Positions 46,901 through 64,000 of a stretch of 64,000 nucleotides of DNA are shown one piece after another. Made by a program: the position numbers and the translations under genes. The DNA comes from Flectonema sp. DT1601. Lineage: Eukaryota. The DNA lies in assembly GCA_964019425.1 (NCBI GenBank), contig OZ025785.1:1178001-1242000 (forward strand). The letters are read 5' to 3'. How positions within the stretch are numbered: position 1 is the first letter of the stretch; each line of letters starts with the position of its first letter. The notes beneath the pieces are model-generated. The model was not told the DNA's origin, did not search any database, and was given only the letters and a program-made list of their open reading frames with translations.

Positions 46901-46931
46901 AATTGATCCTGTCATTCAGTATGTGTTATGA
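37983..46931 (+). CDS. 2982-aa type II membrane protein: Ser/Arg-rich N-tail, TM, LVIVD-like repeats, long beta-rich region, C-terminal Ala/Lys-rich helices with a Cys cluster
   Basis: TM KKRIAIIILLLLLLSTLIIILSLVL (~38370-38445). LVIVD-like units: GDLAFIGKASDGLFVVNISSPGSP, GGVHIIQVSVPTSP, TGLFFIDISDKTNP, GLLHIIDVTDPTQP. CACAG (AG 37957-37958) upstream. Confidence 0.88.
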   Translation: MPRGGYFEDNEVFDDDQQMLPIPSGSDDYSQGDRKKSIGARRASTVEENSYRSMSPSASIMSGRRESNASPLPSPKSISRKQSTSGSYLQQPLASSGCLDDMDVEEEGFVSFDDDVNEVNQPKSKKSNKKRIAIIILLLLLLSTLIIILSLVLTSGDDHDDNTNKAPVDHKTAVPITETTSPKTSPSSGYYRSANSIVVHGDLAFIGKASDGLFVVNISSPGSPQLLGSLVGINIEQVVITSDGDSIIATDRMYGGVHIIQVSVPTSPKRISSFETRDENSNKSLTISIHKDTLCISDEATGLFFIDISDKTNPNQYSSLFSPSAGTPTDTYISDEGLAYVLRSGVLSIVDTTIKSTPLVISAPSELYSKGVGISIKTSLDSSTKTAYIIDEVGLLHIIDVTDPTQPLAGPSSIDFSGNDDKKTLLRPLVSSASPAMILPSEEQLKVNCKTEPSLNGLLISCFGQLQFISHDSTGNYSVSVLEAENVITFSISNGKLYVLKSDGLSVFDWTHYIETPPTTTSRDVRTQSTNSNDISHLKNVFIKLFNHLSQVDIDLSDYGLTQTDLANTIDAKNLVVGLKTLLQLTPKVEGYFGLFNHLQGVPTLEGLADIVQNNIPTQSSDYSLKPDYVYAGNFDSFSDELVVRIQLKAISHKSSQQIFLADQLHGVLKNINKLTELFEFLNTPSVDINIPNLSRKTSFEATSFIDVTLGLNIASVKESKKLSEDQLLSKAFIRINSYEAGVKVVIDPLEFDFSKVFIKDGLCSLALGVKPSEENVKYPSPKTFMLSELDGSSLPELLLRKVSPKPYATLDVELPVQFKNDAEPGSSNLTPIIELRDSNLLDGKLHAFDLDVDLEYLISNGLIKRITDSLDLLLADVTSIGVQNSVDSSAITISNSLLSGIDKRINFTSTLNTYVSLLKKYRKMENDQPVDLKLDAAGMGMAQSEGFQKSLLQTLGFDSQVVKLSEKFPEIQLYYKMISDIGNADPNFDVEKLGWYLSVKPEHQLTRSNSRAILSVLPSDIQTKYQKLNTHGYPVDSSGVVFDPTNEAYLPKLTSILGGTSTFTAVQLGKALSEIRPTLGKNDEFQLEMFYLLKNRFPVVMSRYEQSPNDNFPTDPITSDKFDWEIYLQEIATVFGMGNTGLNKNDLSVLFGKTPTIQGLLSFVKNIFKDSMRDYFVDNVGVQTPFEFEGHIVSRDGHQLLLMELIIDFTIPGVTSSGLINPFLESALGKLGLVELVSSFEDSFTTLQKNKTTVSADLLLDVEAGVQLDSLWIPSNGGVTLPSVFVNVSKLEIVASVSTSSHSSSFEFGSGVSFGITDASLNATFNLTAAIPKGHPVVVISDDQNMKFSLSSVFDAIHVSSSFNLTAPVQFPLLTSPVIISLDDRNLFDDVSPVLSVTSEGFPVSMSISQSPKVVEEVVVDFMVETKTGIMSLPVSVIGKTTFTAEAIQKTLLEFSLSTPVTCPISVVGAVTKLVEADSKMLAAGGVSTVSGALVSLESMTINPCVVAVKDSLTSFFSMKLRIGSVLSVNNLSIEDLRLEVSGKLTSTSAVVVTTPISWIGSVNANTVVFDIPCLLKGSMDNSWGLTNMLADCTIHTKLFTLSTEVEYTSERCSSVNKGQAKLEIPTIGLTATGDITERTGCGSDNKPEYDIQMKASDVFVQGVTLVSPELSVSHTAVTDSISGMVSREWSGRASGDLSIGSHTTLAATLIFDDKTITSFDTTGILNMGPLAGTVSASITNGLVTGSGIFDITLMNGIIPQLSATFQHVSTYTTSNADIPLWSVNGSLTAFDIYGITLAATNVNITGAYKDTTATADDVTWTGSVTAEGRFLDNSNAQFRAEIRNDEFSSLWANITLDGPSIKFSGEAEITSDHQINKCSAIEAEGQLFITGLDRDKTIDFESTALYNDCAGIGEVGYSLEATVNTTIEVFSGLSIKDLSVSVESRVAKNDNNWKATVQGTANIFGMTSHAAVVWENGKISQANIQTAFTTTNGLLSAKLEFDYIDECRSSKGSSEFLIRLKDLSDLTITGDVSYNKCTGVVEVIGSTIHKWKGPSGTTYNGISVVITSSDNGGDVNAKLATRDWIGSISGTSSSGFLSQLSFDTKNGTVDGMVTYEDDNLSLVVAVGTSNCTGRGTAILKDLPHNIPAIELDVSFSRPGCVEPSWIAEGSIRQVIIPFNSKVLIIDRMTVTITNDKHNKKKVEIVGEFMDGDFAVKIEFGVSPLTEVTLIGEKKSVTPISISSFTSKWYSTGSSSPFSTNSADPSTQKSVTATSLNNVKLEISFHEKLLSVTANGFLFGLSWNVAVGIQHEGSKWKFGGYIETSNFTGRTETPDLVDKVINGLLPASLSLSIANEDIHIQGNTIRKGLCVRIVLAESSSHIQQVVSSAPSSFKTQIAAAKKPAVSNGVAGFILQADIITPKDITLYVMLAGNIRLTDGVYFRSVGMAFKIQTVPEMGFMAEIDFTVGKGVHQQVLTAGGFVGLDLAGTISVGLSLDSSQPWVSPFGINGVEVLFPLGIEMGISFTGYPTSFAFIGGMQIGGVYGKIVIGVDLIDFTKTAFKGEVGGLSLRRLIVGVGECDKCIPSELDDLIDGTALESLSGSFNPDPFHSVAIHAGTVYETIDAGITIEIKNLQFLGVLHIQSGKFKLNSHGIDTGLQLAPVHWGPLHITAPGDESKGPGFELLLSPTKQKVSVYGQITVLGMRAMLDLSVGSRESHGKFSLMVAGLEVSVALLVRGKPGDKDFRNVIEGSMSLGYMNHILDKAGEYFQKLADKAAAALEEKQKKFEAAAETVRSAKAKLEEAKESTSSKLKAARDKVTKYRHEKQQATCPNKCTRGWLGIPNCWGMFKCWVTKQAVKLLVVAEKALSAVEVIAVGAIELAQGVLTAAEVVLEITAKALELAKIGMKKFSDLINKYGSLSKIFSIQRLGFKSTLTSDDVALNVYADLIILGRIVNIEFTSELTFEAIFKSVIDPVIQYVL

Positions 46932-48551: not shown

Positions 48552-48903
48552 TTTCTCAGTTGAAACCTATTCAAAACCAAAAGCCATATTTGTTTATTTC
48601 AACAGGCAAACTCAAAATAGAAACCCTACAAGTACCGTTCAGAGGATGTCTGATGCGACTGCGAAAAAGCAAAAACGTCTTGTGTGTATTTATAAAGGGT
48701 TTTCTGATTTCCGACTAGCAGCGCCAAGCCCTATGCAGCCCCATTATACTTCACCCCTCAGGAATTACCGAACAAGATCAAAGGCTCAATTATATTTTTT
48801 TTTCTCGGTTGAAACCTTCTCAAAATCAAAAGCCATATTTGTTTATTTCAACAGGTAAACTCAAAATAGAAACCCTACAAGTAGCGTTCAGAGGATGTCT
48901 GAT
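48552..48903. repeat. ~100-nt imperfect direct repeat, offset 249 nt (~48552-48654, ~48801-48903)
   Basis: TTTCTC(A/G)GTTGAAACC...AAAGCCATATTTGTTTATTTCAACAGG(C/T)AAACTCAAAATAGAAACCCTACAAGTA(C/G)CGTTCAGAGGATGTCTGAT occurs twice, each after a poly(T) run. Confidence 0.93.
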
Positions 48904-48942
48904 ATTTGTTTATTTAATTTTCGATCACAACAGTTGTTACAC

Positions 48943-49728
48943 ATGATCAGAATAATAAAACATTTCAAACAGTTTCGAACTATGACTGCAAAACTTCAGA
49001 TACTTAATAGAAATAAGATAAGATATTTATCTCAAGAAGAAGCCATCTTATTAGACAAAAGACTTATGGGAGATGATGGGGGCTATCGTGTAAGCCAACT
49101 GATGGAGCTAGCTGGACAGAGTTGCGCTGTTGCAATCGAAAACGAGTATTCTAATCACCGCGACTCCGCAACAGAATTCATAATAGTTTCAGGTCCTGGA
49201 AACAATGGAGGCGATGGCCTTGTCATTGCCCGACACTTACTACATTATGGATTTAAAAATGTGAGAGTTGTGTATCCCAGAGAGACGACAAATGATCTCT
49301 ACCTCGACTTACTTAAACAATGTAAGTCTCACGGAATAGACGTCAGTAGTGAGTTAGTTAGATTAACAAAAGACTGTGTCGTAGTCGATGCGTTGTTTGG
49401 ATTTAGTTTTAGACCACCTCTTAAGAAACCATTTGATGAAATAATAAATAAAATAAACGAAGCTCAGTCATCAGGTGCTAAGGTAGTGTCAATCGACATC
49501 CCAACTGGCTGGCACGTTGAAAACGGTCCTCTCTCTGATGGTGCTGGAGCTGACAAGCCGCTAACACCCGACATGCTTGTTAGTCTAACGGCACCTAAAA
49601 AGTGTGCTGAACACTTCAAGGGATCACATTATATTGGAGGTAGATTCGTACCACCTGGATTCACTGATTATCCTTTACCCGTGTATACTCCTGGTCCTGC
49701 TCTTGTAATGAAGGTTGCTTCACTGTAA
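48943..49728 (+). CDS. NAXE: NAD(P)H-hydrate epimerase (YjeF N-terminal family); start probably ATG 48943 or 48982 rather than 48895
   Basis: QLMELAGQSCA, GPGNNGGDGLVIARHL, VVDALFGFSF, SIDIPTGW, LVSLTAPK, GGRFVP: the eukaryotic NAXE/Nnr1 motif series. Confidence 0.93.
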   Translation: MIRIIKHFKQFRTMTAKLQILNRNKIRYLSQEEAILLDKRLMGDDGGYRVSQLMELAGQSCAVAIENEYSNHRDSATEFIIVSGPGNNGGDGLVIARHLLHYGFKNVRVVYPRETTNDLYLDLLKQCKSHGIDVSSELVRLTKDCVVVDALFGFSFRPPLKKPFDEIINKINEAQSSGAKVVSIDIPTGWHVENGPLSDGAGADKPLTPDMLVSLTAPKKCAEHFKGSHYIGGRFVPPGFTDYPLPVYTPGPALVMKVASL

Positions 49729-49894
49729 AGCATCCTTTGAGAACTCCTGCAATTCCATACACTCACCCCCCACAGACAGGTCAGTGAAAGTTCTTTTTGT
49801 AACTCGTTTACTATAAAATTGATTGTCAGGTTTAACTTAATTCCCAGCAAGACACTTTTACAATAATCGAAACATGAGTTAGACTTAGTTACAA

Positions 49895-51844
49895 ATGCCT
49901 TACTCGGTATCCCCAACGTACATTAAAGTTGATTTTAACAGCACAGAACCTACAGTATTTGATGTGGTGGTCAGAAACACTGGAAATGACTGGGGCATGT
50001 ACAAAATAAAAACAAACGGAAAGCGGGAATATTCAGCAAGACCAAGGGCTGGTTTTATTGCAGGTGGTGAGACGATAACGATATGTCTGAAGTATAAAAA
50101 ACAAAAATCATTCGACGAACACCAATCGAAGAACCCTTCTAACGAAAAAGATGTCCTGGCTATACTTGCACGTGATCTGATTGCGGAGGAAAATAGCATG
50201 GTATTGCATGCAGATGGTAATGTCAATTCAAAAAATATTTCTTCATTTGTTTCATCTGCGTGGGATAGGCATGCTGGACACGACTCTGCCACCATAATGA
50301 AAATTCGTATTCAGTCTGACATAGGATCTTCTCCACGAAAGTCATTTGATAAGATTTCTGCCTCAAATTCTAACGTCCTTCAAAGTCAACCTGTTGAATG
50401 CGTGTCTTGGTCAGAAAGAACTATTTCTTTACATAATCTGTCACATGCTCTTCTTAGTCCTTCTATTGATGAAGTGCACAAATTTGAATCAAGTTCGAGT
50501 AGAGTCTTAGTAACATACAAAGACCGACAGTCAACTATCGATGCTTTAAAAAGTATTAAAAGAAGTGCTTTGTTCAATCCGATAAACGACTTGCTGATAA
50601 CTATTCCAAATCTATCGACATTGCAACGTCACTTAAAGTGTGCTTACATCTGTGGTTATGTAAACACTGGTCAGAAGATGGGTTTGTCGAGTAATTGTGA
50701 GATTTCGTATTCTTCATCATCAGATGGAAGTTCAGAATTGGCTTGGAAAATAATGCTAGAACCGTTATCATGTTGCGTTGCTATTTCTTCAAACCCAGCC
50801 TGTAGTAATATATCAGACTTGTGTTCTGTAGTTCCTGCTACTGTACTTAGGTATAAACGATGTTGCCTCACAGTTCATGGGGGTCTTTGGAATTCTGCTT
50901 TGCAAATGTATCCAGCAATTAAACACTCGCTGTTACAGTTGTTACCAAAATTACGAAACACAGTAACTGTGACTGGCCATGGTAAGTCTGGAGCATATGC
51001 TCAAGCGATCACAATGTTGATCGCTTCTGATAAAGTTTTTAGTAGTGTTAAAAATATTAGTACTGTTACTTTTGGTTCTCCGAAGTTCATATTATCAGTT
51101 GGGGAAAGCGATGACATCGGACAAACCATGACTGGGCTTGACAGAATACGGCAATACAACTACATTCACATTGACGATCCTGTTGCTGCATTATTCACTA
51201 TCAGACACGATGATGTAGTAAAACACCCCACTGTTATACAACTACTAACTGCTTGCATGCAACATAGTAATGTAGACATTGGTACGTATGCTGCTGTTGG
51301 AGCATCAGTTTATGCTATTCCAAACTGGATGCGGATTAAGTTAAAACTTGATTGTGAGCCGAATGACTTTGTTATTGATATTAAAAAACCTTATTTGTCG
51401 AGATCTGGTTTTTCAGTTGCCGCGCACGACATTAATTCATATGTTTGTTTCTTGAATGATCTAATCCGTTCTAGAAACTCACCCAAAACGTTTCCTCTTA
51501 TAATGAGTAACATTACTAAACGAATTCTACCTATTAAAAAACGATTCTTATTTGGGATGTTATGCGCAGTCATGTTGTTAGGCATGTGGTATTATCCAGT
51601 ATTTTATCGTTCAGTTGTTGTGCCTTATTTGTTTGACAGTTTCTCATTTTTTTATTCGTTATTACCGGATGGTTTTACGATCCCAACAATCAACGAGATC
51701 GATGATTATTTTATTATTTTTGACGAGTGGTTACAAGAAACCATAACCTGGACATCTCTCGTATCAGTTGTTATGTCTATAGCGCAATGGCTGATAGAAG
51801 CCGCAGTTTTATTGACTAGAATTATACTAGGACTGATATTCTGA
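49895..51844 (+). CDS. 649-aa protein: N-terminal MSP (VAP-like) domain, class-3 lipase-like domain lacking the canonical nucleophile Ser, C-terminal TM segments
   Basis: MSP: VRNTGNDWGMYKIKTNGKREYSARPRAGFI. Lipase_3 landmarks: VHGGLW, VTVTGHGKSGAYA, TVTFGSPK, HIDDPV, HDINSY. Hydrophobic FLFGMLCAVMLLGMWYYPV and C-terminal stretch. Confidence 0.8.
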   Translation: MPYSVSPTYIKVDFNSTEPTVFDVVVRNTGNDWGMYKIKTNGKREYSARPRAGFIAGGETITICLKYKKQKSFDEHQSKNPSNEKDVLAILARDLIAEENSMVLHADGNVNSKNISSFVSSAWDRHAGHDSATIMKIRIQSDIGSSPRKSFDKISASNSNVLQSQPVECVSWSERTISLHNLSHALLSPSIDEVHKFESSSSRVLVTYKDRQSTIDALKSIKRSALFNPINDLLITIPNLSTLQRHLKCAYICGYVNTGQKMGLSSNCEISYSSSSDGSSELAWKIMLEPLSCCVAISSNPACSNISDLCSVVPATVLRYKRCCLTVHGGLWNSALQMYPAIKHSLLQLLPKLRNTVTVTGHGKSGAYAQAITMLIASDKVFSSVKNISTVTFGSPKFILSVGESDDIGQTMTGLDRIRQYNYIHIDDPVAALFTIRHDDVVKHPTVIQLLTACMQHSNVDIGTYAAVGASVYAIPNWMRIKLKLDCEPNDFVIDIKKPYLSRSGFSVAAHDINSYVCFLNDLIRSRNSPKTFPLIMSNITKRILPIKKRFLFGMLCAVMLLGMWYYPVFYRSVVVPYLFDSFSFFYSLLPDGFTIPTINEIDDYFIIFDEWLQETITWTSLVSVVMSIAQWLIEAAVLLTRIILGLIF

Positions 51845-52004
51845 GGGATTTTCTTTGTTTTCTATTTTCTTATCTGTTCGAAACATCTCTTTAAACCTTT
51901 TTTTGTCTTGTTAAGTTGCTACTTATGCTGCTTATAATTGTGTTGTAAAGCTTAGGGGGGGGGAATTTTTTTTTTAATTTTTTTATAAAAAAAAAATCAA
52001 CTGA

Positions 52005-52022
52005 TTTATTTTTTTATTACAG
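52005..52022 (+). promoter_or_regulatory. Putative trans-splice acceptor of macrodomain gene
   Basis: TTTATTTTTTTATTACAG ends 26 nt before ATG 52049. Confidence 0.5.
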
Positions 52023-52048
52023 AAAAGAGAACAGCATTCGCAAACAGC

Positions 52049-52798
52049 ATGTCGACGTACAGCATACCCAAGAAATATGTTCCTGGAAAGGGACCAAGAC
52101 CAACACGACCTGATGCTGATTTGACGAAGGACGCAATTGAAAAGGAAAGGGGTACTGTGAATGAAGTATCACTGGTGGTAGTATTGGGTGACTTAACCAA
52201 CGAGAAGTGTGGCTGTTTGGTGAACGCTGCTAACAGTAAATTGACACACGGAGCTGGGCTTGCAAAGGCAATATTAAAAAAGGGTGGAAAGGTGATCCGA
52301 CAACAGTCTGACAACTACCTACAAAAACACGGGCTCATAAAAACTGGTGAGCTTGCTGTAACAGACGGTGGTAACCTCCCTTGCAATAACGTTCTTCACG
52401 TTGTCGGTCCTATATATGAGGATGGTACTAAAAACGAAGACCAACTACTTGCACTGTGCATGAAAAATATTATCAAGACGTGTAATGAGCTCAAACTTAG
52501 TTCCGTTGCTCTCCCTGCTATTAGCAGCGGGCTGTTCAAGTTCCCAAAGGACAAAGTCGCTAAAATACTGTACACAGAATCCATAACTTATGCATTAAAG
52601 AAATCTGAAACAGGTATGAATTTTTTTAATATGTTTTTTTTTTAACTGCTGTAATAAAACACAAAAATAACGACAGATACCCTCACTGAGATTCGCTTCA
52701 CTAACTTTGACTCAGACACCGTATCGTACTTTGAAAGGTTCCATCAGCAGGTTTTCAACGGAGACATCGATCCAAAGTCACTAGTTGAAGACAGCTAG
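52049..52798 (+). CDS. Macrodomain (MacroD-like ADP-ribose binding/hydrolase) protein, join(52049..52613,52677..52798), 228 aa
   Basis: GDLT, LVNAANSKLTHGAGLAKAI, HVVGP, ALPAISSGLFKFP. Splicing supplies the missing last strand and helix (DTLTEIRFTNFDSDTVSYF); stop TAG at 52796-52798. Confidence 0.9.
52614..52676 (+). other. Spliceosomal intron of macrodomain gene (63 nt, phase 1)
   Basis: ACAG|GTATGAATTTTTTT...AAAATAACGACAG|ATACC. It removes the implausible tail MNFFNMFFF*. Confidence 0.9.
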
Positions 52799-53333: not shown

Positions 53334-55571
53334 ATGACGACAGTAAACAATCAATCAACTCGTATTGCTGACGCGTATTCTCCGTTTCGAATCTTTTACT
53401 CGGAAGATGACACGGAAGAAGATCGTCGCAAGAAAAGGATTTCTATATCTTGTATGATGTTCGGCTATGTGGGTATGGGCACGGCTGTGTCGTACCCAAC
53501 ACCAATGTCAGTAACACTGTTTTCTTACGGAGTAGTAAGTAGTCTCCCATTTATGTTGAAATGGGGAATCACAAAGAAACAAACAGACAATGAAATATCT
53601 ATATTTCTACTACTCTGGATACCAATGATATTACTGTTCGACTTGGCAAATGCGAGTGAAATGATAGATCCCGTTTGGCCGACTGTAGTGTTGATGGTTG
53701 ATGTTGCGTTGCTTTGTAGATTACCTACAAGAGTTACTTCAACAATCATAGTATTAGTAACTTTATATATGATCTTGCTGTGTTCAGAAAGAATCCTGAG
53801 ATTCGGTCTTTTAGAAATTTTGCCAGTCGAAAAGATGAGATTATTAGACACATGTTTCAACATAACACAAGAGGAAATAGATGCCACCCCGTGTAAAATA
53901 GAACCTGCTGGTGCGATCTCATTTTGTGTTGTATATTTGGGTGTCTTTATCCTTGACTATTACTGTACGAGGGGATTCGCTGTGGGTATGCGAAATGAAC
54001 AGGCTAAACTAAAAGCCAGTGTGTCCCTTGCTGAGAATGTTGTCACTTCTCTTGTTGGATTTGATTTGGAAGAAGCGAAAAGTCAACTCTCCAGTGAAGA
54101 CACTCCGCTAACAGCAACTCTATCAACTCTGATAGAAAACTTACGACTATATCGTCCATACTTACCAGATGCTTTATTTGAGCTATCTGAGCAGGTGAGA
54201 TCCCGTGACACGGTGAAACCTCCTGAAGGACATGCTGCCATAGTCTTCACTGACTTGAAATCATCAACAGCTATTTGGGAAGCCTCACCTGATGCTATGA
54301 AGCGCGCGTTGAAAACCCACAACAAGATAATTCGCAATGGGATATCTGAATTTGAAGGTTACGAAGTGAAAACGATTGGAGATTCGTTTATGGTGGCGTT
54401 TGCCGAATTCGAATCCGCCTGCAAATTCGCGATGTTGATCCAAGAGAAGTTCAGCTATGCTTCATGGCCTAATGATTTGGTGCTTCCGGCAGAATTTCAG
54501 AGGCATGCATGGACAGGTCTTATGATGCGAATTGGTGTTCACTTCGGAGAAGTTGAAAGCGACCTCGACACTCACAATGGTCGAACTGATTATGTTGGGA
54601 GAAGTGTTAATAAAGCTGCTCGTCTTGAAGGTGTTTGTGCACCTGGTGCTGTTGCTATTGACAGTTCTTTACTACACTTTTTAAGCATTCGTGAGGGATG
54701 GTCTACTCGACAGATCTCTGAAAAGTTGAAAGGAATTGCAGAGGAACAAACGGACATAACCCTTCTCTTCCCTAATACTCTAGAACATGAAAGTTCAACC
54801 TCCTCAGTGTGTTGTAGTTGGAGGAGTATGAGTAGTGCTGTAAGTGAAACACTTGTTGATAAGTTGACTTTAAAGAGATCCGCCACCACAAGTATTTTCA
54901 ACCTTGAAATGAGCAGCGAGGGTATTCACGTTCAAAATCACATAAACACATCGCTAGCGAAATCCATTGGCTGTTTGGAACGTACGGATGGGTCGATCGT
55001 ATCGGTTCTTGCTTCTTTCATAACTGTTGGTTGGAATACTAGCCGCCAATCATCTTCACATCTGCAAAGTGGAATCAGATTTGTTTCACTTCTATTTGGT
55101 TTGTTTTCTGAGGGGGACGTCTTTGTTGGAATCTCTTCGAGTCCCGTTCACTGTGGGTGGATTGGAACAAAAGAACAACGATTTATTACCGTCTTTGGTG
55201 ACTGTGTTCAGAATTGCATGCACCTCTGCCAATCATGTGCTGATATTTCTGCCTTTGCCCTCTGCTCTGACTTTCCCACTGATGTCAGTGTGTTGCGTCC
55301 TATCGATCGCTGGAGAGGAAGTAATAGTGTCAAAACAGTTTACCAGATAAATGCTTCAAAATTAAAGCAGATAATTGCAACTAAAACACCTGAAGAAGTA
55401 GTGGACAACGAAGATCAGAGCAGTGAATGGGGTTGGAGTTCAGAATATACGGACGCTTTTACAACGGGAGACTGGGAGACAATTGAAGAACAGCGAAACC
55501 CTTCCGACGATGTCTTGAAGAAAGTTGCTGAACTTGCTCGGACTGGAAAGAGTCTGCGAATGATATTTTAG
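53334..55571 (+). CDS. Six-TM class III adenylyl cyclase, copy 1 (745 aa)
   Basis: AIVFTDLKSST, GYEVKTIGDSFM, MRIGVHFG, TDYVGRSVNKAARLE: both metal-binding Asp, ATP-specifying Lys/Asp and transition-state Asn/Arg are present. About six hydrophobic N-terminal segments. Confidence 0.93.
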   Translation: MTTVNNQSTRIADAYSPFRIFYSEDDTEEDRRKKRISISCMMFGYVGMGTAVSYPTPMSVTLFSYGVVSSLPFMLKWGITKKQTDNEISIFLLLWIPMILLFDLANASEMIDPVWPTVVLMVDVALLCRLPTRVTSTIIVLVTLYMILLCSERILRFGLLEILPVEKMRLLDTCFNITQEEIDATPCKIEPAGAISFCVVYLGVFILDYYCTRGFAVGMRNEQAKLKASVSLAENVVTSLVGFDLEEAKSQLSSEDTPLTATLSTLIENLRLYRPYLPDALFELSEQVRSRDTVKPPEGHAAIVFTDLKSSTAIWEASPDAMKRALKTHNKIIRNGISEFEGYEVKTIGDSFMVAFAEFESACKFAMLIQEKFSYASWPNDLVLPAEFQRHAWTGLMMRIGVHFGEVESDLDTHNGRTDYVGRSVNKAARLEGVCAPGAVAIDSSLLHFLSIREGWSTRQISEKLKGIAEEQTDITLLFPNTLEHESSTSSVCCSWRSMSSAVSETLVDKLTLKRSATTSIFNLEMSSEGIHVQNHINTSLAKSIGCLERTDGSIVSVLASFITVGWNTSRQSSSHLQSGIRFVSLLFGLFSEGDVFVGISSSPVHCGWIGTKEQRFITVFGDCVQNCMHLCQSCADISAFALCSDFPTDVSVLRPIDRWRGSNSVKTVYQINASKLKQIIATKTPEEVVDNEDQSSEWGWSSEYTDAFTTGDWETIEEQRNPSDDVLKKVAELARTGKSLRMIF

Positions 55572-55806
55572 TCAGCACTCGCAATACGGTGAAATCGGGA
55601 CAGATGTATCCTTGGAGAGTTCATTCATAATTATTTTGTGTCATTTCTATGCCACAGCATTGCCCTTTTTTATTTACACCGACAAGGTTCGGAGAAGAAA
55701 CTATTCAGATTAAGAGCCGTTATTTATTATTGTTGTCTGTGGTCAACTGTTTAGAGTATTCTTATATCTTTTGATTTAACAGTGAAGTGATTTACTGAAG
55801 GTCAAC

Positions 55807-58035
55807 ATGGACAATCAATCAACTCGTATTGCTGACTGGTTTTCTCCGTTTCGCATCTTTTACTCGGATGATGACACGGAAGAAGATCGTCGCAAGAAAA
55901 GAATCTCAACAGCCGCTATTATGTTCGGCTACTTGGGTATGGGCTCGGGTATGACGTTTCCGTCAACAACGACCGTATCGCTGTGTTCTTACGGAGTAGT
56001 AAGTAGTCTCCCATTTATGTTGAAATGGGGAATCACAAAGAAACAAAGAGACAATGAGATAGCTGCGGTTCTGCTACTCTGGGTACCGCTAATATTACTA
56101 TTAGACTTGGCAAATACGAGTGAAATGATGGATCCCATTTGGCCGACTGTAGTGTTGATGGTTGATATTGCTTTGCTTTGTAAACTACCCAGAATCGTTA
56201 CTTCAACTCTCGTATTAGCAGTAACTTTATATATGATCTTGGTGTGTGCAGAAAGAGTCCTGAGATTCGGTCTTTTTGAATTAATTTCAACTCAAAAGAT
56301 GCGCGGATTAGACAAGTGTTTCAACATAACACAAGAGGAAATAGATGCCACCCCGTGTAAAATAGATCCCACTAATGCGGTATCGTTTTATGTGGTGTAT
56401 TTGGGTGTCTTTATCCTTGACTATTACTGTACGAGGGGATTCGCTGTGGGTATGCAAAATGAACAGGCTAAACTAAAAGCCAGTGTGTCCCTTGCTGAGA
56501 ATGTTGTCACTTCTCTTGTTGGATTTGATTTGGAAGAAGCGAAAAGTCAACTCTCCAGTGAAGACACTCCGCTAACAGCAACTCTATCAACTCTGATAGA
56601 AAACTTACGACTATATCGTCCATACTTACCAGATGCTTTATTTGAGCTATCTGAGCAGGTAGGATCCCGTGACACGGTGAAACCTCCTGAAGGACATGCT
56701 GCCATCGTCTTCACTGACTTGAAATCTTCAACAGCTATTTGGGAAGCCTCACCCGATGCTATGAAGCGCGCGTTGAAAACCCACAACAAGATAATTCGCA
56801 ATGGGATATCTGAATTTGAAGGTTACGAAGTGAAAACGATTGGAGATTCGTTTATGGTGGCGTTTGCCGAATTCGAATCCGCCTGCAAATTCGCGATGTC
56901 GATCCAAGAAAAGTTCAGCTATGCTTCATGGCCTAATGATTTGGTGCTTCCGGCAGAATTTCAGAGGCATGCATGGACAGGTCTTATGATGCGAATTGGT
57001 GTTCACTTCGGAGAAGTTGCAAGCGACGTCAGTGCTTGCAGTGGTCGAACTGATTATGTTGGGAGAAGTGTTAACAAAGCTGCTCGTCTTGAAGGTGTTT
57101 GTGCACCTGGTGCTGTTGCTATTGACAGTTCTTTACGTCACCTTTTAAACATTCGTGAGGGATGGTCTACTCGACAGATCTCTGAAAAGTTGAAAGGAAT
57201 TGCAGAGGAACAAACAGACATAACCCTTCTCTTCCCTAATACTCTAGAACATGAAAGTTCAACCTCCTCAGTGTGTTGTAGTTGGAGGAGTATGAGTAGT
57301 GCTGTAAGTGAAACACTTGTTGATAAGTTGACCTTAAAGAGATCCGCCACCACAAGTATTTTCAACCTTGAAATGAGCAGCGAGGGTATTCACGTTCAAA
57401 ATCACATAAACACATCGCTAGCGAAATCCATTGGCTGTTTGGAACGTACGGATGGGTCGATCGTATCGGTTCTTGCTTCTTTCATAACTGTTGGTTGGAA
57501 TACCAGCCGCCAATCATCTTCACATCTGCAAAGTGGAATCAGATTTGTTTCACTTCTATTTGGTTTGTTTTCAGAGGGAGACGTCTTTGTTGGAATCTCT
57601 TCGAGTCCCGTTCACTGTGGGTGGATTGGAACAAAAGAACAACGATTTATTACCGTCTTTGGTGACTGTGTTCAGAATTGCATGCACCTCTGCCAATCAT
57701 GTGCTGATATTTCTGCCTTTGCCCTCTGCTCTGACTTTCCCACTGAAGTCAGTGTGTTGCGTCCTATCGATCGCTGGAGAGGAAGTAATGGTGTCAAAAC
57801 AGTTTACCAGATAAATGCTTCAAAATTAAAGCAGATAATTGCAACTAAAACACCTGAAGAAGTAGTGGACAACGAAGATCAGAGCAGTGAATGGGGTTGG
57901 AGTTCAGAATACACGGACGCTTTTACAAAGGGAGACTGGGAGACAATTGAAGAACAGCGAAACCCTTCCGACGATGTCTTGAAGAGAGTTGCTGAACTTG
58001 CTCGGACTGGAAAGAGTCTGCGAATGATATTTTAG
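55807..58035 (+). CDS. Six-TM class III adenylyl cyclase, copy 2 (742 aa)
   Basis: Same catalytic motifs as copy 1; N-terminus 3 aa shorter (MDNQSTRIADWF). Confidence 0.93.
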   Translation: MDNQSTRIADWFSPFRIFYSDDDTEEDRRKKRISTAAIMFGYLGMGSGMTFPSTTTVSLCSYGVVSSLPFMLKWGITKKQRDNEIAAVLLLWVPLILLLDLANTSEMMDPIWPTVVLMVDIALLCKLPRIVTSTLVLAVTLYMILVCAERVLRFGLFELISTQKMRGLDKCFNITQEEIDATPCKIDPTNAVSFYVVYLGVFILDYYCTRGFAVGMQNEQAKLKASVSLAENVVTSLVGFDLEEAKSQLSSEDTPLTATLSTLIENLRLYRPYLPDALFELSEQVGSRDTVKPPEGHAAIVFTDLKSSTAIWEASPDAMKRALKTHNKIIRNGISEFEGYEVKTIGDSFMVAFAEFESACKFAMSIQEKFSYASWPNDLVLPAEFQRHAWTGLMMRIGVHFGEVASDVSACSGRTDYVGRSVNKAARLEGVCAPGAVAIDSSLRHLLNIREGWSTRQISEKLKGIAEEQTDITLLFPNTLEHESSTSSVCCSWRSMSSAVSETLVDKLTLKRSATTSIFNLEMSSEGIHVQNHINTSLAKSIGCLERTDGSIVSVLASFITVGWNTSRQSSSHLQSGIRFVSLLFGLFSEGDVFVGISSSPVHCGWIGTKEQRFITVFGDCVQNCMHLCQSCADISAFALCSDFPTEVSVLRPIDRWRGSNGVKTVYQINASKLKQIIATKTPEEVVDNEDQSSEWGWSSEYTDAFTKGDWETIEEQRNPSDDVLKRVAELARTGKSLRMIF

Positions 58036-58247
58036 TCAGCACTCGCAATACGGTGAAATCGGGACAGATGTATCCTTGGAGAGTTCATTCATAATTATTT
58101 TGTGTCATTTCTATGCCACAGCATTGCCTTTTTTTATTTACACCGACTGATTAAGAGCCGTTATTTATTATTGTTGTTTGTGGTCAACTGTTTAGAATAT
58201 TCTTATATCTTTTGATTTAACAGTGAAATGATTTACTGAAGGTCAAC

Positions 58248-60485
58248 ATGACGACAGTAAACAATCAATCAACTCGTATTGCTGACGCGTATTCTCCGTT
58301 TCGCATCTTTTACTCGGATGATGACACGGAAGAAGATCGTCGCAAGAAAAGGATTGCTGTATCTAGTATAATGTTCGGCTATGTGGGCATGGGCACTGCT
58401 TTGTTGATCCCATCACCAGCCTATGTAACACTTTCTTGTTATGGAGTAGCAAGTAGTCTGCCATTTATGTTGAAATGGGCGATCACAAAGAAACAAAGAG
58501 ACAATGAGATAGCTGCGGTTCTGCTACTCTTGGTTCCAATGATATTACTATTTGACTTGGTATTTATGAGTGAAATGATGGATCCCATTTGGCCGACTGT
58601 AGTGTTAGTAGCGGATGTTGCGTTGCTTTGTAAATTACCCACAAGAGTTACTTCAACAATCATAGTATTAGTAACTTTATATATGATCTTGCTGTGTTCA
58701 GAAAGAATCCTGAGATTCGGTCTTTTCGAACTGATACCAAGCAAAAAGATGAGATTATTAGACACATGTTTCAACATAACACAAGACGAAATAGATGCCA
58801 CCCCGTGTAAAATGGGTGCGGCTGACGTGATGTCTATTACTGTAGTATATTTAGGTGTCTTTATCCTTGACTATTACTGTACGAGGGGATTCGCTGTGGG
58901 TATGCGAAATGAACAGGCTAAACTAAAAGCCAGTGTGTCCCTTGCTGAGAATGTTGTCACTTCTCTTGTTAGATTTGATTTGGAAGAAGCGAAAAGTCAA
59001 CTCTCCAGTGAAGACACTCCGCTAACAGCAACTCTATCAACTCTGATAGAAAACTTACGACTATATCGTCCATACTTACCAGATGCTTTATTTGAGCTTT
59101 CTGAGCAGGTGAGATCCCGTGACACGGTGAAACCTCCTGAAGGACATGCTGCCATAGTCTTCACTGACTTGAAATCATCAACAGCTATTTGGGAAGCCTC
59201 ACCCGATGCTATGAAGCGCGCGTTGAAAACCCACAACAAGATAATTCGCAATGGGATATCTGAATTTGAAGGTTACGAAGTGAAAACGATTGGAGATTCG
59301 TTTATGGTGGCGTTTGCCGAATTCGAATCCGCCTGCAAATTCGCGATGTCGATCCAAGAGAAGTTCAGCTATGCTTCATGGCCTAATGATTTGGTGCTTC
59401 CGGCAGAATTTCAGAGGCATGCATGGACAGGTCTTATGATGCGAATTGGTGTTCACTTCGGAGAAGTTGAAAGCGACCTCGACACTCACAATGGTCGAAC
59501 TGATTATGTTGGGAGAAGTGTTAACAAAGCTGCTCGTCTTGAAGGTGTTTGTGCACCTGGTGCTGTTGCTATTGACAGTTCTTTACTACACTTTTTAAAC
59601 ATTCATGAGGGATGGTCTACTCGACAGATCTCTGAAAAGTTGAAAGGAATTGCAGAGGAACAAACGGACATAACCCTTCTCTTCCCTAATACTCTAGAAC
59701 ATGAAAGTTCAACCTCCTCAGTGTGTTGTAGTTGGAGGAGTATGAGTAGTGCTGTAAGTGAAACACTTGTTGATAAGTTGACCTTAAAGAGATCCGCCAC
59801 CACAAGTATTTTCAACCTTGAAATGAGCAGCGAGGGTATTCACGTTCAAAATCACATAAACACATCGCTAGCGAAATCCATTGGCTGTTTGGAACGTACG
59901 GATGGGTCGATCGTATCGGTTCTTGCTTCTTTCATAACTGTTGGTTGGAATACCAGCCGCCAATCATCTTCACATCTGCAAAGTGGAATCAGATTTGTTT
60001 CACTTCTGTTTGGTTTGTTTTCAGAGGGAGACGTCTTTGTTGGAATCTCTTCGAGTCCCGTTCACTGTGGGTGGATTGGAACAAAAGAACAACGATTTAT
60101 TACCGTCTTTGGTGACTGTGTTCAGAATTGCATGCACCTCTGCCAATCATGTGCTGATATTTCTGCCTTTGCCCTCTGCTCTGACTTTCCCACTGAAGTC
60201 AGTGTGTTGCGTCCTATCGATCGCTGGAGAGGAAGTAATGGTGTCAAAACAGTTTACCAGATAAATGCTTCAAAATTAAAGCAGATAATTGCAACTAAAA
60301 CACCTGAAGAAGTAGTGGACAACGAAGATCAGAGCAGTGAATGGGGTTGGAGTTCAGAATACACGGACGCTTTTACAAAGGGAGACTGGGAGACAATTGA
60401 AGAACAGCGAAACCCTTCCGACGATGTCTTGAAGAGAGTTGCTGAACTTGCTCGGACTGGAAAGAGTCTGCGAATGATATTTTAG
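58248..60485 (+). CDS. Six-TM class III adenylyl cyclase, copy 3 (745 aa)
   Basis: Same catalytic motifs; intact ORF. Confidence 0.93.
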   Translation: MTTVNNQSTRIADAYSPFRIFYSDDDTEEDRRKKRIAVSSIMFGYVGMGTALLIPSPAYVTLSCYGVASSLPFMLKWAITKKQRDNEIAAVLLLLVPMILLFDLVFMSEMMDPIWPTVVLVADVALLCKLPTRVTSTIIVLVTLYMILLCSERILRFGLFELIPSKKMRLLDTCFNITQDEIDATPCKMGAADVMSITVVYLGVFILDYYCTRGFAVGMRNEQAKLKASVSLAENVVTSLVRFDLEEAKSQLSSEDTPLTATLSTLIENLRLYRPYLPDALFELSEQVRSRDTVKPPEGHAAIVFTDLKSSTAIWEASPDAMKRALKTHNKIIRNGISEFEGYEVKTIGDSFMVAFAEFESACKFAMSIQEKFSYASWPNDLVLPAEFQRHAWTGLMMRIGVHFGEVESDLDTHNGRTDYVGRSVNKAARLEGVCAPGAVAIDSSLLHFLNIHEGWSTRQISEKLKGIAEEQTDITLLFPNTLEHESSTSSVCCSWRSMSSAVSETLVDKLTLKRSATTSIFNLEMSSEGIHVQNHINTSLAKSIGCLERTDGSIVSVLASFITVGWNTSRQSSSHLQSGIRFVSLLFGLFSEGDVFVGISSSPVHCGWIGTKEQRFITVFGDCVQNCMHLCQSCADISAFALCSDFPTEVSVLRPIDRWRGSNGVKTVYQINASKLKQIIATKTPEEVVDNEDQSSEWGWSSEYTDAFTKGDWETIEEQRNPSDDVLKRVAELARTGKSLRMIF

Positions 60486-60720
60486 TCAGCACTCGCAATA
60501 CGGTGAAATCGGGACAGATGTATCCTTGGAGAGTTCATTCATAATTATTTTGTGTCATTTCTATGCCACAGCATTGCCCTTTTTTATTTACACCGACAAG
60601 GTTCGGAGAAGAAACTATTCAGATTAAGAGCCGTTATTTATTATTGTTGTCTGTGGTCAACTGTTTAGAGTATTCTTATATCTTTTGATTTAACAGTGAA
60701 ATGATTTACTGAAGGTCAAC

Positions 60721-62958
60721 ATGACGACAGTAAACAATCAATCAACTCGTATTGCTGACGCGTATTCTCCGTTTCGAATCTTTTACTCGGATGATGACAC
60801 GGAAGAAGATCGTCGCAAGAAAAGGATTTCTATATCTACTATAATATTCGGCTATGTGGGGATAGGAACGACTTTCTTCTCTCTATCAATCACTTTCGTA
60901 ACGCTTTCTTTTTACGGAGTAGTAAGTAGTCTCCCATTTATGTTGAAATGGGGAATCACAAAGAAACAAACAGACAATGAGATAGCTGCGGTTCTGTTAC
61001 TCTGGATACCACTCATTTTGCTAGTAGACTTAACACATATGAGTGAAATGATGGATCCCGTTTGGCCGACTGTAGTGTTAGTAGCGGATGTTGCGTTGCT
61101 CTGTAAATTACCCACAAGAGTTGCTTCAACAATCGTATTAGCAGTATCTTTCTATATGATCTTAGTGTGTTTTGAAAGAATCCTGAGATTTGGTCTTTTT
61201 GACATATTATCAACCAAAAAGATGAGATTATTAGACACATGTTTCAACATCACACAAGAAGAAATAGATGCCACCCCGTGTAAAACTGAACCCGTTGATG
61301 CTGCAGCGTTTTGTATTGTTTATTTGGGTGTCTTTATCCTTGACTATTACTGTACGATGGGATTCGCTGTGGGTATGCGAAATGAACAGGCTAAACTAAA
61401 AGCCAGTGTGTCCCTTGCTGAGAATGTTGTCACTTCTCTTGTTGGATTTGATTTGGAAGAAGCGAAAAGTCAACTCTCCAGTGAAGACACTCCGCTAACA
61501 GCAACTCTATCAACTCTGATAGAAAACTTACGACTATATCGTCCATACTTACCAGATGCTTTATTTGAGCTATCTGAGCAGGTAGGATCCCGTGACACGG
61601 TGAAACCTCCTGAAGGACATGCTGCCATAGTCTTCACTGACTTGAAATCTTCAACAGCTATTTGGGAAGCCTCACCCGATGCTATGAAGCGCGCGTTGAA
61701 AACCCACAACAAGATAATTCGCAATGGGATATCTGAATTTGAAGGTTACGAAGTGAAAACGATTGGAGATTCGTTTATGGTGGCGTTTGCCGAATTCGAA
61801 TCCGCCTGCAAATTCGCGATGTCGATCCAAGAAAAGTTCAGCTATGCTTCATGGCCTAATGATTTGGTGCTTCCGGCAGAATTCCAAAGGCATGCATGGA
61901 CAGGTCTTATGATGCGAATTGGTGTTCACTTCGGAGAAGTTGAAAGCGACCTCGACACTCACAATGGTCGAACTGATTATGTTGGGAGAAGTGTTAACAA
62001 AGCTGCTCGTCTTGAAGGTGTTTGTGCACCTGGTGCTGTTGCTATTGACAGTTCTTTACTACACTTTTTAAACATTCATGAGGGATGGTCTACTCGACAG
62101 ATCTCTGAAAAGTTGAAAGGAATTGCAGAGGAACAAACAGACATAACCCTTCTCTTCCCTAATACTCTAGAACATGAAAGTTCAACCTCCTCAGTGTGTT
62201 GTAGTTGGAGGAGTATGAGTAGTGCTGTAAGTGAAACACTTGTTGATAAGTTGACTTTAAAGAGATCCGCCACCACAAGTATTTTCAACCTTGAAATGAG
62301 CAGCGAGGGTATTCACGTTCAAAATCACATAAACACATCGCTAGCGAAATCCATTGGCTGTTTGGAACGTACGGATGGGTCGATCGTATCGGTTCTTGCT
62401 TCTTTCATAACTGTTGGTTGGAATACCAGCCGCCAATCATCTTCACATCTGCAAAGTGGAATCAGATTTGTTTCACTTCTGTTTGGTTTGTTTTCAGAGG
62501 GAGACGTCTTTGTTGGAATCTCTTCGAGTCCCGTTCACTGTGGGTGGATTGGAACAAAAGAACAACGATTTATTACCGTCTTTGGTGACTGTGTTCAGAA
62601 TTGCATGCACCTCTGCCAATCATGTGCTGATATTTCTGCCTTTGCCCTCTGCTCTGACTTTCCCACTGAAGTCAGTGTGTTGCGTCCTATCGATCGCTGG
62701 AGAGGAAGTAATAGTGTCAAAACAGTTTACCAGATAAATGCTTCAAAATTAAAGCAGATAATTGCAACTAAAACACCTGAAGAAGTAGTGGACAACGAAG
62801 ATCAGAGCAGTGAATGGGGTTGGAGTTCAGAATACACGGACGCTTTTACAAAAGGAGACTGGGAGACAATTGAAGAACAGCGAAACCCTTCCGACGATGT
62901 CTTGAAGAGAGTTGCTGAACTTGCTCGGACTGGAAAGAGTCTGCGAATGATATTTTAG
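60721..62958 (+). CDS. Six-TM class III adenylyl cyclase, copy 4 (745 aa)
   Basis: Same catalytic motifs; intact ORF. Confidence 0.93.
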   Translation: MTTVNNQSTRIADAYSPFRIFYSDDDTEEDRRKKRISISTIIFGYVGIGTTFFSLSITFVTLSFYGVVSSLPFMLKWGITKKQTDNEIAAVLLLWIPLILLVDLTHMSEMMDPVWPTVVLVADVALLCKLPTRVASTIVLAVSFYMILVCFERILRFGLFDILSTKKMRLLDTCFNITQEEIDATPCKTEPVDAAAFCIVYLGVFILDYYCTMGFAVGMRNEQAKLKASVSLAENVVTSLVGFDLEEAKSQLSSEDTPLTATLSTLIENLRLYRPYLPDALFELSEQVGSRDTVKPPEGHAAIVFTDLKSSTAIWEASPDAMKRALKTHNKIIRNGISEFEGYEVKTIGDSFMVAFAEFESACKFAMSIQEKFSYASWPNDLVLPAEFQRHAWTGLMMRIGVHFGEVESDLDTHNGRTDYVGRSVNKAARLEGVCAPGAVAIDSSLLHFLNIHEGWSTRQISEKLKGIAEEQTDITLLFPNTLEHESSTSSVCCSWRSMSSAVSETLVDKLTLKRSATTSIFNLEMSSEGIHVQNHINTSLAKSIGCLERTDGSIVSVLASFITVGWNTSRQSSSHLQSGIRFVSLLFGLFSEGDVFVGISSSPVHCGWIGTKEQRFITVFGDCVQNCMHLCQSCADISAFALCSDFPTEVSVLRPIDRWRGSNSVKTVYQINASKLKQIIATKTPEEVVDNEDQSSEWGWSSEYTDAFTKGDWETIEEQRNPSDDVLKRVAELARTGKSLRMIF

Positions 62959-63170
62959 TCAGCACTCGCAATACGGTGAAATCGGGACAGATGTATCCTT
63001 GGAGAGTTCATTCATAATTATTTTGTGTCATTTCTATGCCACAGCATTGCCTTTTTTTATTTACACCGACTGATTAAGAGCCGTTATTTATTATTGTTGT
63101 TTGTGGTCAACTGTTTAGAATATTCTTATATCTTTTGATTTAACAGTGAAATGATTTACTGAAGGTCAAC

Positions 63171-64000
63171 ATGACGACAGTAAACAATCAATCAACTCGT
63201 ATTGCTGACGCGTATTCTCCGTTTCGCATCTTTTACTCGGATGATGACACGGAAGAAGATCGTCGCAAGAAAAAAATCTCTACATCTACTGTAATGTTCG
63301 GCTATGTGGGTATGGGGGCGTCTTTGTTATCTGCAACTTCAACCTATGTAATGCTTTATTCTTACTGTGTATTAAGTAGTCTCCCATTTATGTTGAAATG
63401 GGCGATCACGAAAAAACAAAGAGACAATGAGATAGCTGCGGTTCTGCTACTCTGGGTACCACTAATATTACTATTTGACTTGGTACATATGAGTGAGATG
63501 ATGGATCCCATTTGGCCGACTGTAGTGTTGACAGTTGATGTCACATTGCTTTGTAAATTACCCACAAGAGTTACTTCAACAATCGTATTAACTGTATCCT
63601 TCTATATGTCCTTGTTGTGTGCAGAAAGAATCCTGAGATTTGGTCTTTTTGACATATTCCCAGTCGAAAAACTAAAACTTATGAACAAGTGTTTCAACAT
63701 CACACAAGAGGAAATAGATGCCACCCCGTGCAAAATAGAACCAACATATGCGGTCACGTTTTGTATGTTATATTTAGGTGTCTTTATCCTTGACTATTAC
63801 TGTACGAGGGGATTCGCTGTGGGTATGCGAAATGAACAGGCTAAACTAAAAGCCAGTGTGTCCCTTGCTGAGAATGTTGTCACTTCTCTTGTTAGATTTG
63901 ATTTGGAAGAAGCGAAAAGTCAACTCTCCAGTGAAGACACTCCGCTAACAGCAACTCTATCAACTCTGATAGAAAACTTACGACTATATCGTCCATACTT
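63171..64000 (+). CDS. Six-TM adenylyl cyclase, copy 5, 3'-partial (absent from ORF track)
   Basis: ATG at 63171 (MTTVNNQSTRIADAYSPF...), open to the window end (...IENLRLYRPY). Confidence 0.92.
   Translation, partial: MTTVNNQSTRIADAYSPFRIFYSDDDTEEDRRKKKISTSTVMFGYVGMGASLLSATSTYVMLYSYCVLSSLPFMLKWAITKKQRDNEIAAVLLLWVPLILLFDLVHMSEMMDPIWPTVVLTVDVTLLCKLPTRVTSTIVLTVSFYMSLLCAERILRFGLFDIFPVEKLKLMNKCFNITQEEIDATPCKIEPTYAVTFCMLYLGVFILDYYCTRGFAVGMRNEQAKLKASVSLAENVVTSLVRFDLEEAKSQLSSEDTPLTATLSTLIENLRLYRPY

Follow-up and report, generated by a model that had tools for sequence, protein, structure and literature searches.

Predicted tandem six-transmembrane adenylyl cyclases of Flectonema sp. DT1601 carry divergent membrane domains, candidate ligand sensors, on a nearly uniform enzyme

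The six-transmembrane (6TM) anchors of membrane-bound adenylyl cyclases (ACs) have been argued or reported to act as receptors (PMC4821796, PMC9433096, PMC11606603). Bacterial anchors, argued to be receptors, diverge faster than the catalytic domains (PMC4821796, PMC9433096), and the mammalian anchors are reported to be lipid receptors (PMC11606603). Trypanosomatid receptor cyclases form an expanded family with a variable N-terminal part, tandem arrays and, in array Tb62, gene conversion (PMC7719234, PMC1855330), while the transmembrane cyclases of Trichomonas and the NCIII cyclases of Euglena gracilis are large families with multiple transmembrane segments for which conversion has been suggested and sensory roles proposed (PMC2914791, PMC6366073). 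In the red and green opsins the paralogs are homogenised except in the part that determines specificity, where orthologs are closer than paralogs, and a divergence peak under gene conversion has been described as a mark of selection against conversion (PMC3924837). Here we describe a tandem array of predicted 6TM class III ACs at the end of a 64,000-nucleotide stretch of Flectonema sp. DT1601 DNA (assembly GCA_964019425.1, contig OZ025785.1, positions 1,178,001 to 1,242,000 of the forward strand; hereafter the window, with position 1 its first letter). On balance we favour the explanation that gene conversion keeps the enzyme of these tandem cyclases uniform while selection keeps their differing membrane domains as ligand sensors.

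The window ends in five intronless open reading frames (ORFs) in tandem on the same (+) strand, repeating every 2.47 kb or so; four of them are full-length (742-745 amino acids [aa]). An earlier note on this DNA had quoted segments from them, all of which are present in the sequence, and had claimed that the copies are nearly identical past about aa 205, silent sites and spacers included, with the differences concentrated in the membrane domain. Both claims were borne out. In codons 201-745 only 36 of 545 codons vary, and the proportions of synonymous (pS) and nonsynonymous (pN) differences are 0.028 and 0.009 (pN/pS, 0.31), against 0.287 and 0.159 in codons 35-200, the membrane domain; codons 1-34 have values of 0.037 and 0.034. 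Pooled pairwise differences at fourfold sites number 98/478, 35/1622 and 6/134 for codons 35-200, 201-745 and 1-34, respectively, and the spacers differ at 0-5 of 212-235 columns (0-2%) apart from one 23-bp indel. Silent divergence is about 10-fold higher in codons 35-200 than on either flank. Since this step sits in silent sites, purifying selection on the enzyme does not account for it; it points instead to homogenisation of everything but an island of about 500 bp. Regions with little constraint among relatives are included: identity within the array, compared with that across 13 near relatives, is 100% versus 11% for the linker at 481-511, 98% versus 38% for the tail and 93% versus 36% for the N-terminus, while the membrane domain stands at 70% versus 30%. 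We have little doubt that gene conversion is the homogenising mechanism. A direct test for conversion, based on the clustering of informative sites, gave a p value of 0.043 for the 5' part of the five copies and values of 0.42-0.64 in three four-copy sets, and so provides only weak direct evidence.

The array is composed of the following features, with the parts of copy 1 listed individually.

53334..55571, + strand: copy 1, 745 aa; predicted 6TM bundle, HAMP-like linker, class III adenylyl cyclase and degenerate cyclase domain; identical to P0124
53436..53933, + strand: variable membrane domain of copy 1, codons 35-200, the island that appears to escape conversion
53799..53903, + strand: predicted TM5-6 outer loop of copy 1, with family-conserved R-F-G-L and P-C motifs and Cys174/Cys187
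53976..54188, + strand: helical linker of copy 1, aa 215-285, a predicted parallel four-helix bundle in the dimer (HAMP-like), from contact register
54222..54773, + strand: catalytic cyclase domain of copy 1, aa 297-480; PF00211 match; D307, K346, D350, R399, D419, N426, R430
54867..55373, + strand: degenerate second cyclase-homology domain of copy 1, aa 512-680; profile matches, catalytic residues missing
55572..55806, + strand: spacer 1-2, long form (+23 bp)
55807..58035, + strand: copy 2, 742 aa; variable membrane domain at 55900-56397; same as P0123
58036..58247, + strand: spacer 2-3, short form
58248..60485, + strand: copy 3, 745 aa; variable membrane domain at 58350-58847; same as P0126
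60486..60720, + strand: spacer 3-4, long form
60721..62958, + strand: copy 4, 745 aa; variable membrane domain at 60823-61320; same as P0122
62959..63170, + strand: spacer 4-5, short form; 0 differences from spacer 2-3 across 212 columns
63171..64000, + strand: copy 5, truncated by the window end; variable membrane domain at 63273-63770; a prefix of P0125

The window copies are five of the seven members of one 90% cluster, all on a single 354-kb contig; the two members beyond the window carry a common sixth membrane variant, and no extra copy was found upstream of 53000 in the window. Long and short spacers alternate and several 3' sites pair copies 1 and 3 against copies 2 and 4, hinting at a two-gene duplication or at conversion in a two-unit register. 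Copy 2 has a distinct patch in the catalytic domain (codons 408-415 and 447-453, about 57019-57042 and 57136-57156). Copy 5 clusters with copy 2 in the linker-plus-cyclase tree, and two cyclase variants appear to be segregating among the array copies.

The same pattern recurs in relatives. Proteins with a named source come from Diplonema papillatum, D. ambulator, D. japonicum, Flectonema neradi, Sulcionema specki and Namystynia karyoxenos, which makes the organism of the window a likely diplonemid. Among 134 aligned proteins there are 16 groups with a cyclase identity of at least 90%, and the lowest membrane identity is 24-87% in all 16; three of these groups are transcript isoforms, some may share one genome, contigs being told apart by their length, and those beyond the window are only presumably tandem. 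In 157/168 pairs with a cyclase identity of at least 90%, the membrane domain falls short of this identity by more than 10 points, a count into which some window copies were entered twice. Three proteins encoded on one contig are particularly informative, being 98-99% identical over linker plus cyclase and 36-41% identical in the membrane domain. One of the three has a membrane domain 53% identical to that of an F. neradi protein but a cyclase region only 75% identical to it, and in the membrane tree two of the three each have a different F. neradi protein as partner (trees were built with FastTree and LG+G4). By the approximately unbiased (AU) test, a clade of the trio is rejected for the membrane tree (p 0.0018), as is a grouping of the cross-species pair for the cyclase tree (p 3.5e-47). 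A pair that groups together in both trees has identities of 51% in the membrane domain and 69% in the cyclase; hence, rate differences alone cannot yield 38 versus 99. In this one case the membrane variants appear to predate the species split, with the enzyme homogenised later. Membrane lineages that cross species, together with the family-wide split, fit selection keeping different membrane domains, and we regard selection against conversion of this domain as probable. The variable membrane domain on a constant cyclase proposed earlier is real and family-wide and in one case seems older than the species split, but the inner constancy is mainly due to gene conversion.

An AlphaFold2 model (130-row alignment; predicted local distance difference test score [pLDDT], 93; predicted template modelling score, 0.86) contains six helices (28-51, 57-80, 85-108, 116-127, 132-155 and 191-243), agreeing with the six transmembrane (TM) helices of the earlier note. 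The K/R content of the inner segments (0.33, 0.25, 0.14 and 0.23) relative to the outer ones (0.05, 0.12 and 0.10) fits a topology with the N-terminus inside, and helix 6 is predicted to continue into a helical domain. A Cys pair and an N-x-S/T sequon in the last loop had been offered in support of an external location: at least two Cys occur in the TM5-6 loop of 128/130 aligned family members, but the sequon occurs there in only 20/130 and was rejected as family-wide support for the topology. Cys174 and Cys187 both lie at the predicted dimer interface described below.

The cyclase homology domain matches PF00211 above the cut-off (E 1.4e-24 in copy 1) and its catalytic residues (D307, K346, D350, R399, D419, N426 and R430) are invariant in 134/134 aligned rows, which were retrieved by similarity to this domain. 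We take these residues to be the two metal-binding Asp, the adenine-specifying Lys and Asp and the transition-state Asn and Arg. The domain superimposes on the Trypanosoma brucei GRESAG4 structure (1fx4) with a Z score of 23.9 and a root mean square deviation (rmsd) of 2.2 over 191 aligned residues. Judged by these matches, residues 297-480 are a catalytically complete class III AC, predicted to make cyclic AMP (cAMP). The earlier note overlooked two further elements. A second cyclase-like domain (aa 512-680) has profile matches to soluble and photoactivated ACs (E about 1e-4 to 1e-3) and, with hhalign, to the first domain (E 5e-5, probability 68%); it has no equivalents of the K, D, N and R of the catalytic set, and BLASTP of domain 1 against domain 2 gave no match, so that the relationship is visible to profiles only. 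The other element is the helical linker (aa 215-285), which had no Pfam HAMP and no Atlas match in sequence searches. Its predicted contacts (230-259, 234-262, 237-266 and 241-269) are in parallel register, and the name HAMP-like, to which the sequence searches lent no support, refers to this predicted register alone. The motif after the linker bundle seems to resemble the cyclase transducer element.

For a homodimer modelled from aa 12-482 the score was 0.46, compared with 0.00 for the best of three controls (pLDDT of at least 70; contact agreement of at least 52% between runs). The pass mark is reached by 21/30 solved microbial homodimers and 0/23 single chains, and by 17/29 and 0/30, respectively, for eukaryotes. 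The predicted interface comprises the family-invariant residues W115, P116, D123, C187, D208 and T212, plus C174, and a four-helix bundle (219-243/258-281); only 1/41 interface positions varies among the six array members. The fold is most like that of membrane AC anchors, though at moderate Z scores only. The best structural match of the membrane model is AC9 (Z 10.6, rmsd 3.0, 178 aligned), followed by ImcA (10.5, 5.5, 181), AC5 (9.5, 4.9, 189) and Cya (8.2, 5.3, 165), and the matches to Cya/AC9-type anchors (Z 10.6, 9.5 and 8.2) come at only 7-8% sequence identity. Atlas language-model features place the domain with the MASE6, 7, 8 and 11 clusters at 0.90-0.92, with a warning from the tool that the family may be wrong. 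Neither in the window copies nor in 48 relatives did a Pfam search of the membrane domain give a match at the cut-off, the best being MASE6 in 1/48 proteins (E 0.003; 18.2 bits against a cut-off of 27.4). Kinship of the bundle with known 6TM anchors is likely on the strength of the models.

The variation within the membrane domain is only partly as first described. Three hypervariable outer loops had been claimed. In the window the outer helix halves do vary most, but in the model the quoted segments fall largely at the outward ends of helices 1, 2, 3 and 6. The one long outer loop is conserved in its core (175-187; pN, 0.013), and the inner helix halves vary as well. Diversity in the window is 0.39 in the outer helix halves, 0.22 in the inner halves and 0.25 in the outer loops (permutation p 0.007, circular shift p 0.12), and an outer excess is significant by permutation in 2/5 groups (p 0.007 and below 0.001). 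In four groups, variability is highest in TM1 or TM2, and TM4 ranks with the least variable helices. From group to group, the variable sites are correlated in 4/6 comparisons and lean toward less hydrophobic positions (pooled rho -0.25, p 0.011). The TM1-2 segment has a pN/pS of 1.01. For the suggestion that variable residues line one outward pocket, the available proxies are mixed: the variable face of TM3, the only clearly opposed helix, is 156 degrees from the hydrophobic face and that of TM6 102 degrees, but TM1, TM2 and TM5 vary on the hydrophobic face. Polar changes at 102-107 and 192-198 (e.g., N/F/H/Y at 106) suggest that these positions may form a pocket.

If the explanation that we favour is correct, each copy would dimerise through TM4, TM6 and the parallel four-helix linker, and a signal would pass from the membrane bundle through this linker to the complete class III cyclase. 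The second, degenerate cyclase domain probably serves in regulation or as a docking module. Each bundle would read its own cue, which, because the outer surface is small, is probably small and hydrophobic or ionic. Given the way genes are regulated in euglenozoans, common spacers point to co-expression, and the near-identical spacers of the array suggest that its copies are expressed together; as the interface is constant, mixed dimers would be possible. A panel of inputs may therefore be pooled into one cAMP output, such that the array would widen detection rather than tell cues apart. That ligand sensing is the reason for the kept differences seems to us the somewhat likelier case.

The membrane domain alone matches 465 clusters (clustering at 50% identity). 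Among the best 150 of these, both cyclase domains are present in 55 (motifs intact in 50) and the degenerate domain alone in 57, while 9 have the first domain alone or in part and 29 neither or a short sequence; 2 of the 57 add a protein kinase (74 proteins scanned). The same membrane domain is thus joined to different cytoplasmic parts. Six of the 10 clusters looked up among these best 150 matches have a named source, and all 6 are diplonemid. The sister class that lacks an active cyclase (P0151, P0152, P0153, P0175, P0196 and 52 more) shares the 6TM bundle and linker, and five same-contig groups within it have the same break between variable and constant parts near the end of TM6, one weakly. 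An E-W-M/L-Y motif lies near the C-terminus in 48/57 of these proteins. Two proteins of N. karyoxenos (P0219 and P0238) combine the membrane domain and degenerate cyclase with a C-terminal protein kinase and are candidate receptor kinases, and in P0155 of D. papillatum two 6TM-linker units flank a truncated cyclase, probably because two tandem copies were joined in the gene model. It is possible, if doubtful, that these proteins belong to a diplonemid superfamily of G-protein-independent chemoreceptors with hundreds of 6TM members, each a variable ligand-binding bundle on a cytoplasmic part that gene conversion keeps uniform. Cyclase-bearing members would then combine in varying pairs with those of an about equally large class that has only a pseudo-cyclase (or an added kinase), much as variable regions are combined with a constant chain. 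We found no description of the family, its pseudo-cyclase class or the conversion pattern in the literature searched, which lay mostly outside subscription journals, so that an earlier mention is possible. The word "cyclase" is absent from the main text of PMC10161547 and PMC12697944, a search that did not extend to the supplements of PMC10161547 and PMC6366073. A proteomics table (PMC12697944) places one P. papillatum adenylate cyclase, which may or may not belong to this family, at the cell membrane.

Several results weigh against selection for ligand sensing. The earlier note had called the membrane domain diversifying; a ratio of nonsynonymous to synonymous rates (omega) above 1, which would show this, was not found: pN/pS is 0.55 (confidence interval, 0.44-0.69), about half of the membrane codons fit an omega near 1 and none of the three site-model comparisons is significant (M1a-M2a, p 0.30; M7-M8, p 0.15; M8a-M8, p 0.054; our own implementation, with five sequences, a star tree and recombination ignored). 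Neither outer excess holds by circular shift (p 0.12 and 0.09) and none is seen in 3/5 groups or in the whole family. In TM1, TM2 and TM5 the face that varies deviates by 1-21 degrees from the hydrophobic, probably lipid-facing, side. In the tree comparison, the AU groups were named after the first tree had been seen, with 17 hand-picked rows under LG+G4, and the F. neradi rows are transcript isoforms that may be chimeric. Older groups have lost homogeneity of the low-constraint linker and tail too, with linker identities of 18-47% in 4/10 groups, indicating that neutral escape does occur. As for the structural predictions, complexes like this one have already been solved and the dimer result may reflect memory of solved cyclases; the interface residues before aa 200 are family-invariant, so that their constancy is no independent support; Z scores of about 10 fall below the tool's caution line of about 13 for helical bundles, designed bundles reaching 9.3-9.8; and Foldseek found no match to the membrane model at E 0.001 (E above 1).

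The alternative that survives best, though we consider it rather improbable, is neutral escape, in which a loosely constrained anchor and dimer scaffold has drifted beyond the similarity that conversion requires while the enzyme keeps converting, the array serving gene dosage. The low pN/pS with its near-neutral half of sites, the variation of TM1, TM2 and TM5 on their hydrophobic face and the escape of linkers and tails in older groups all speak for it, as does the pair P0152/P0279, in which the divergence of TM1-2 (0.65) matches that of the linker (0.62). However, in this array the poorly constrained tail, spacer and N-terminus, of similar length, and the linker at 481-511 have been homogenised, and the membrane domain still swaps patches (copies 1 and 3 share 86 identical bases within it), indicating that conversion can reach it. 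Neutral escape is also hard to reconcile with membrane lineages that persist across species and with a family that maintains hundreds of variants (465 clusters).

It is also conceivable, but distinctly unlikely, that the variants are selected for localisation, lipid preference or partner binding, or that an exposed surface is varied against viruses or predators. The island points to selection on the differences and not to their purpose, and inner and lipid-facing helix positions are among the variable sites. On the other hand, the exposed surface is very small and the core of the long outer loop is conserved, no omega above 1 was found, and persistence across species fits stable functions better than an arms race. 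Finally, it is scarcely credible that the 3' parts look nearly identical through repeat collapse or over-polishing, a possibility that the earlier note had raised itself: spacers and some 3' sites do alternate in a two-gene register, but the 36 variable 3' codons with their pN/pS of 0.31, the distinct patch of copy 2 and the two spacer forms argue against such an artefact. The pattern is also found in 16 groups spread over many contigs and among transcripts, and cyclases that would share about 75% identity in the absence of conversion cannot be merged by polishing.

Elsewhere in the window, positions 1-26427 hold an open frame of at least 8,800 aa with internal repeats, a long coiled-coil-like stretch and no significant Pfam match, which probably runs on into the ORF at 26650-31953 (PH-like domain and fn3-like repeats). 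A 2,982-aa ORF at 37983-46931 has a hydrophobic segment near its N-terminus, LVIVD repeats and a long beta-rich-looking region without a Pfam family. Just upstream of the array (48895-52645) lie a YjeF_N epimerase-like gene, a fusion of an MSP domain and lipase-3 with C-terminal hydrophobic segments and a macro-domain gene.

Very little has been learned about the sensory biology of diplonemids, a group of protists abundant in the sea, and the receptor role of 6TM cyclase anchors is a long-running question resting on chimeras and a few lipids. The array offers a natural experiment, in which six or more distinct membrane domains sit on practically the same enzyme. Any regulatory difference between copies must therefore stem from the membrane bundle, making the receptor hypothesis directly testable.

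Set beside known systems, the family has the look of a clear example in which selection opposes gene conversion across a whole domain. Unlike in the opsins, the island spans an entire 165-codon domain and recurs in many groups, and its differences are of putative function. The Trichomonas cyclases differ in their length (1450-1700 aa), extracellular domains, mostly dispersed genes and 46% pseudogenes, and the E. gracilis members in carrying BLUF, HAMP or Cache1 domains. The closest catalytic domain is that of the trypanosomatid receptor cyclases ESAG4/GRESAG4 (E 2e-48, Z 23.9). Those proteins have one TM segment and a large ectodomain, whereas the array proteins have a 6TM bundle and no ectodomain; with six predicted helices, the trypanosomatid architecture was rejected. 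As in mammalian AC1-9, there are two cyclase folds per chain, and AC9 is the best structural match of the bundle; unlike those enzymes, the array proteins have one 6TM bundle rather than two, and hundreds of variants exist rather than nine isoforms. A mammalian-type C1/C2 pseudoheterodimer was excluded, since all catalytic residues are in domain 1 and there is a single 6TM bundle. The array proteins resemble the bacterial 6TM class III cyclases and sensors (Rv1625c/Cya, the 6TM-HAMP type Rv3645, and CqsS-type and MASE sensors) in their six-helix anchor, predicted homodimer, helical transducer and single active class III domain. They differ from the bacterial cyclases in a membrane domain without a Pfam-level match, a long Cys-containing TM5-6 loop, an extra degenerate cyclase domain and an arrangement in tandem arrays with concerted evolution.

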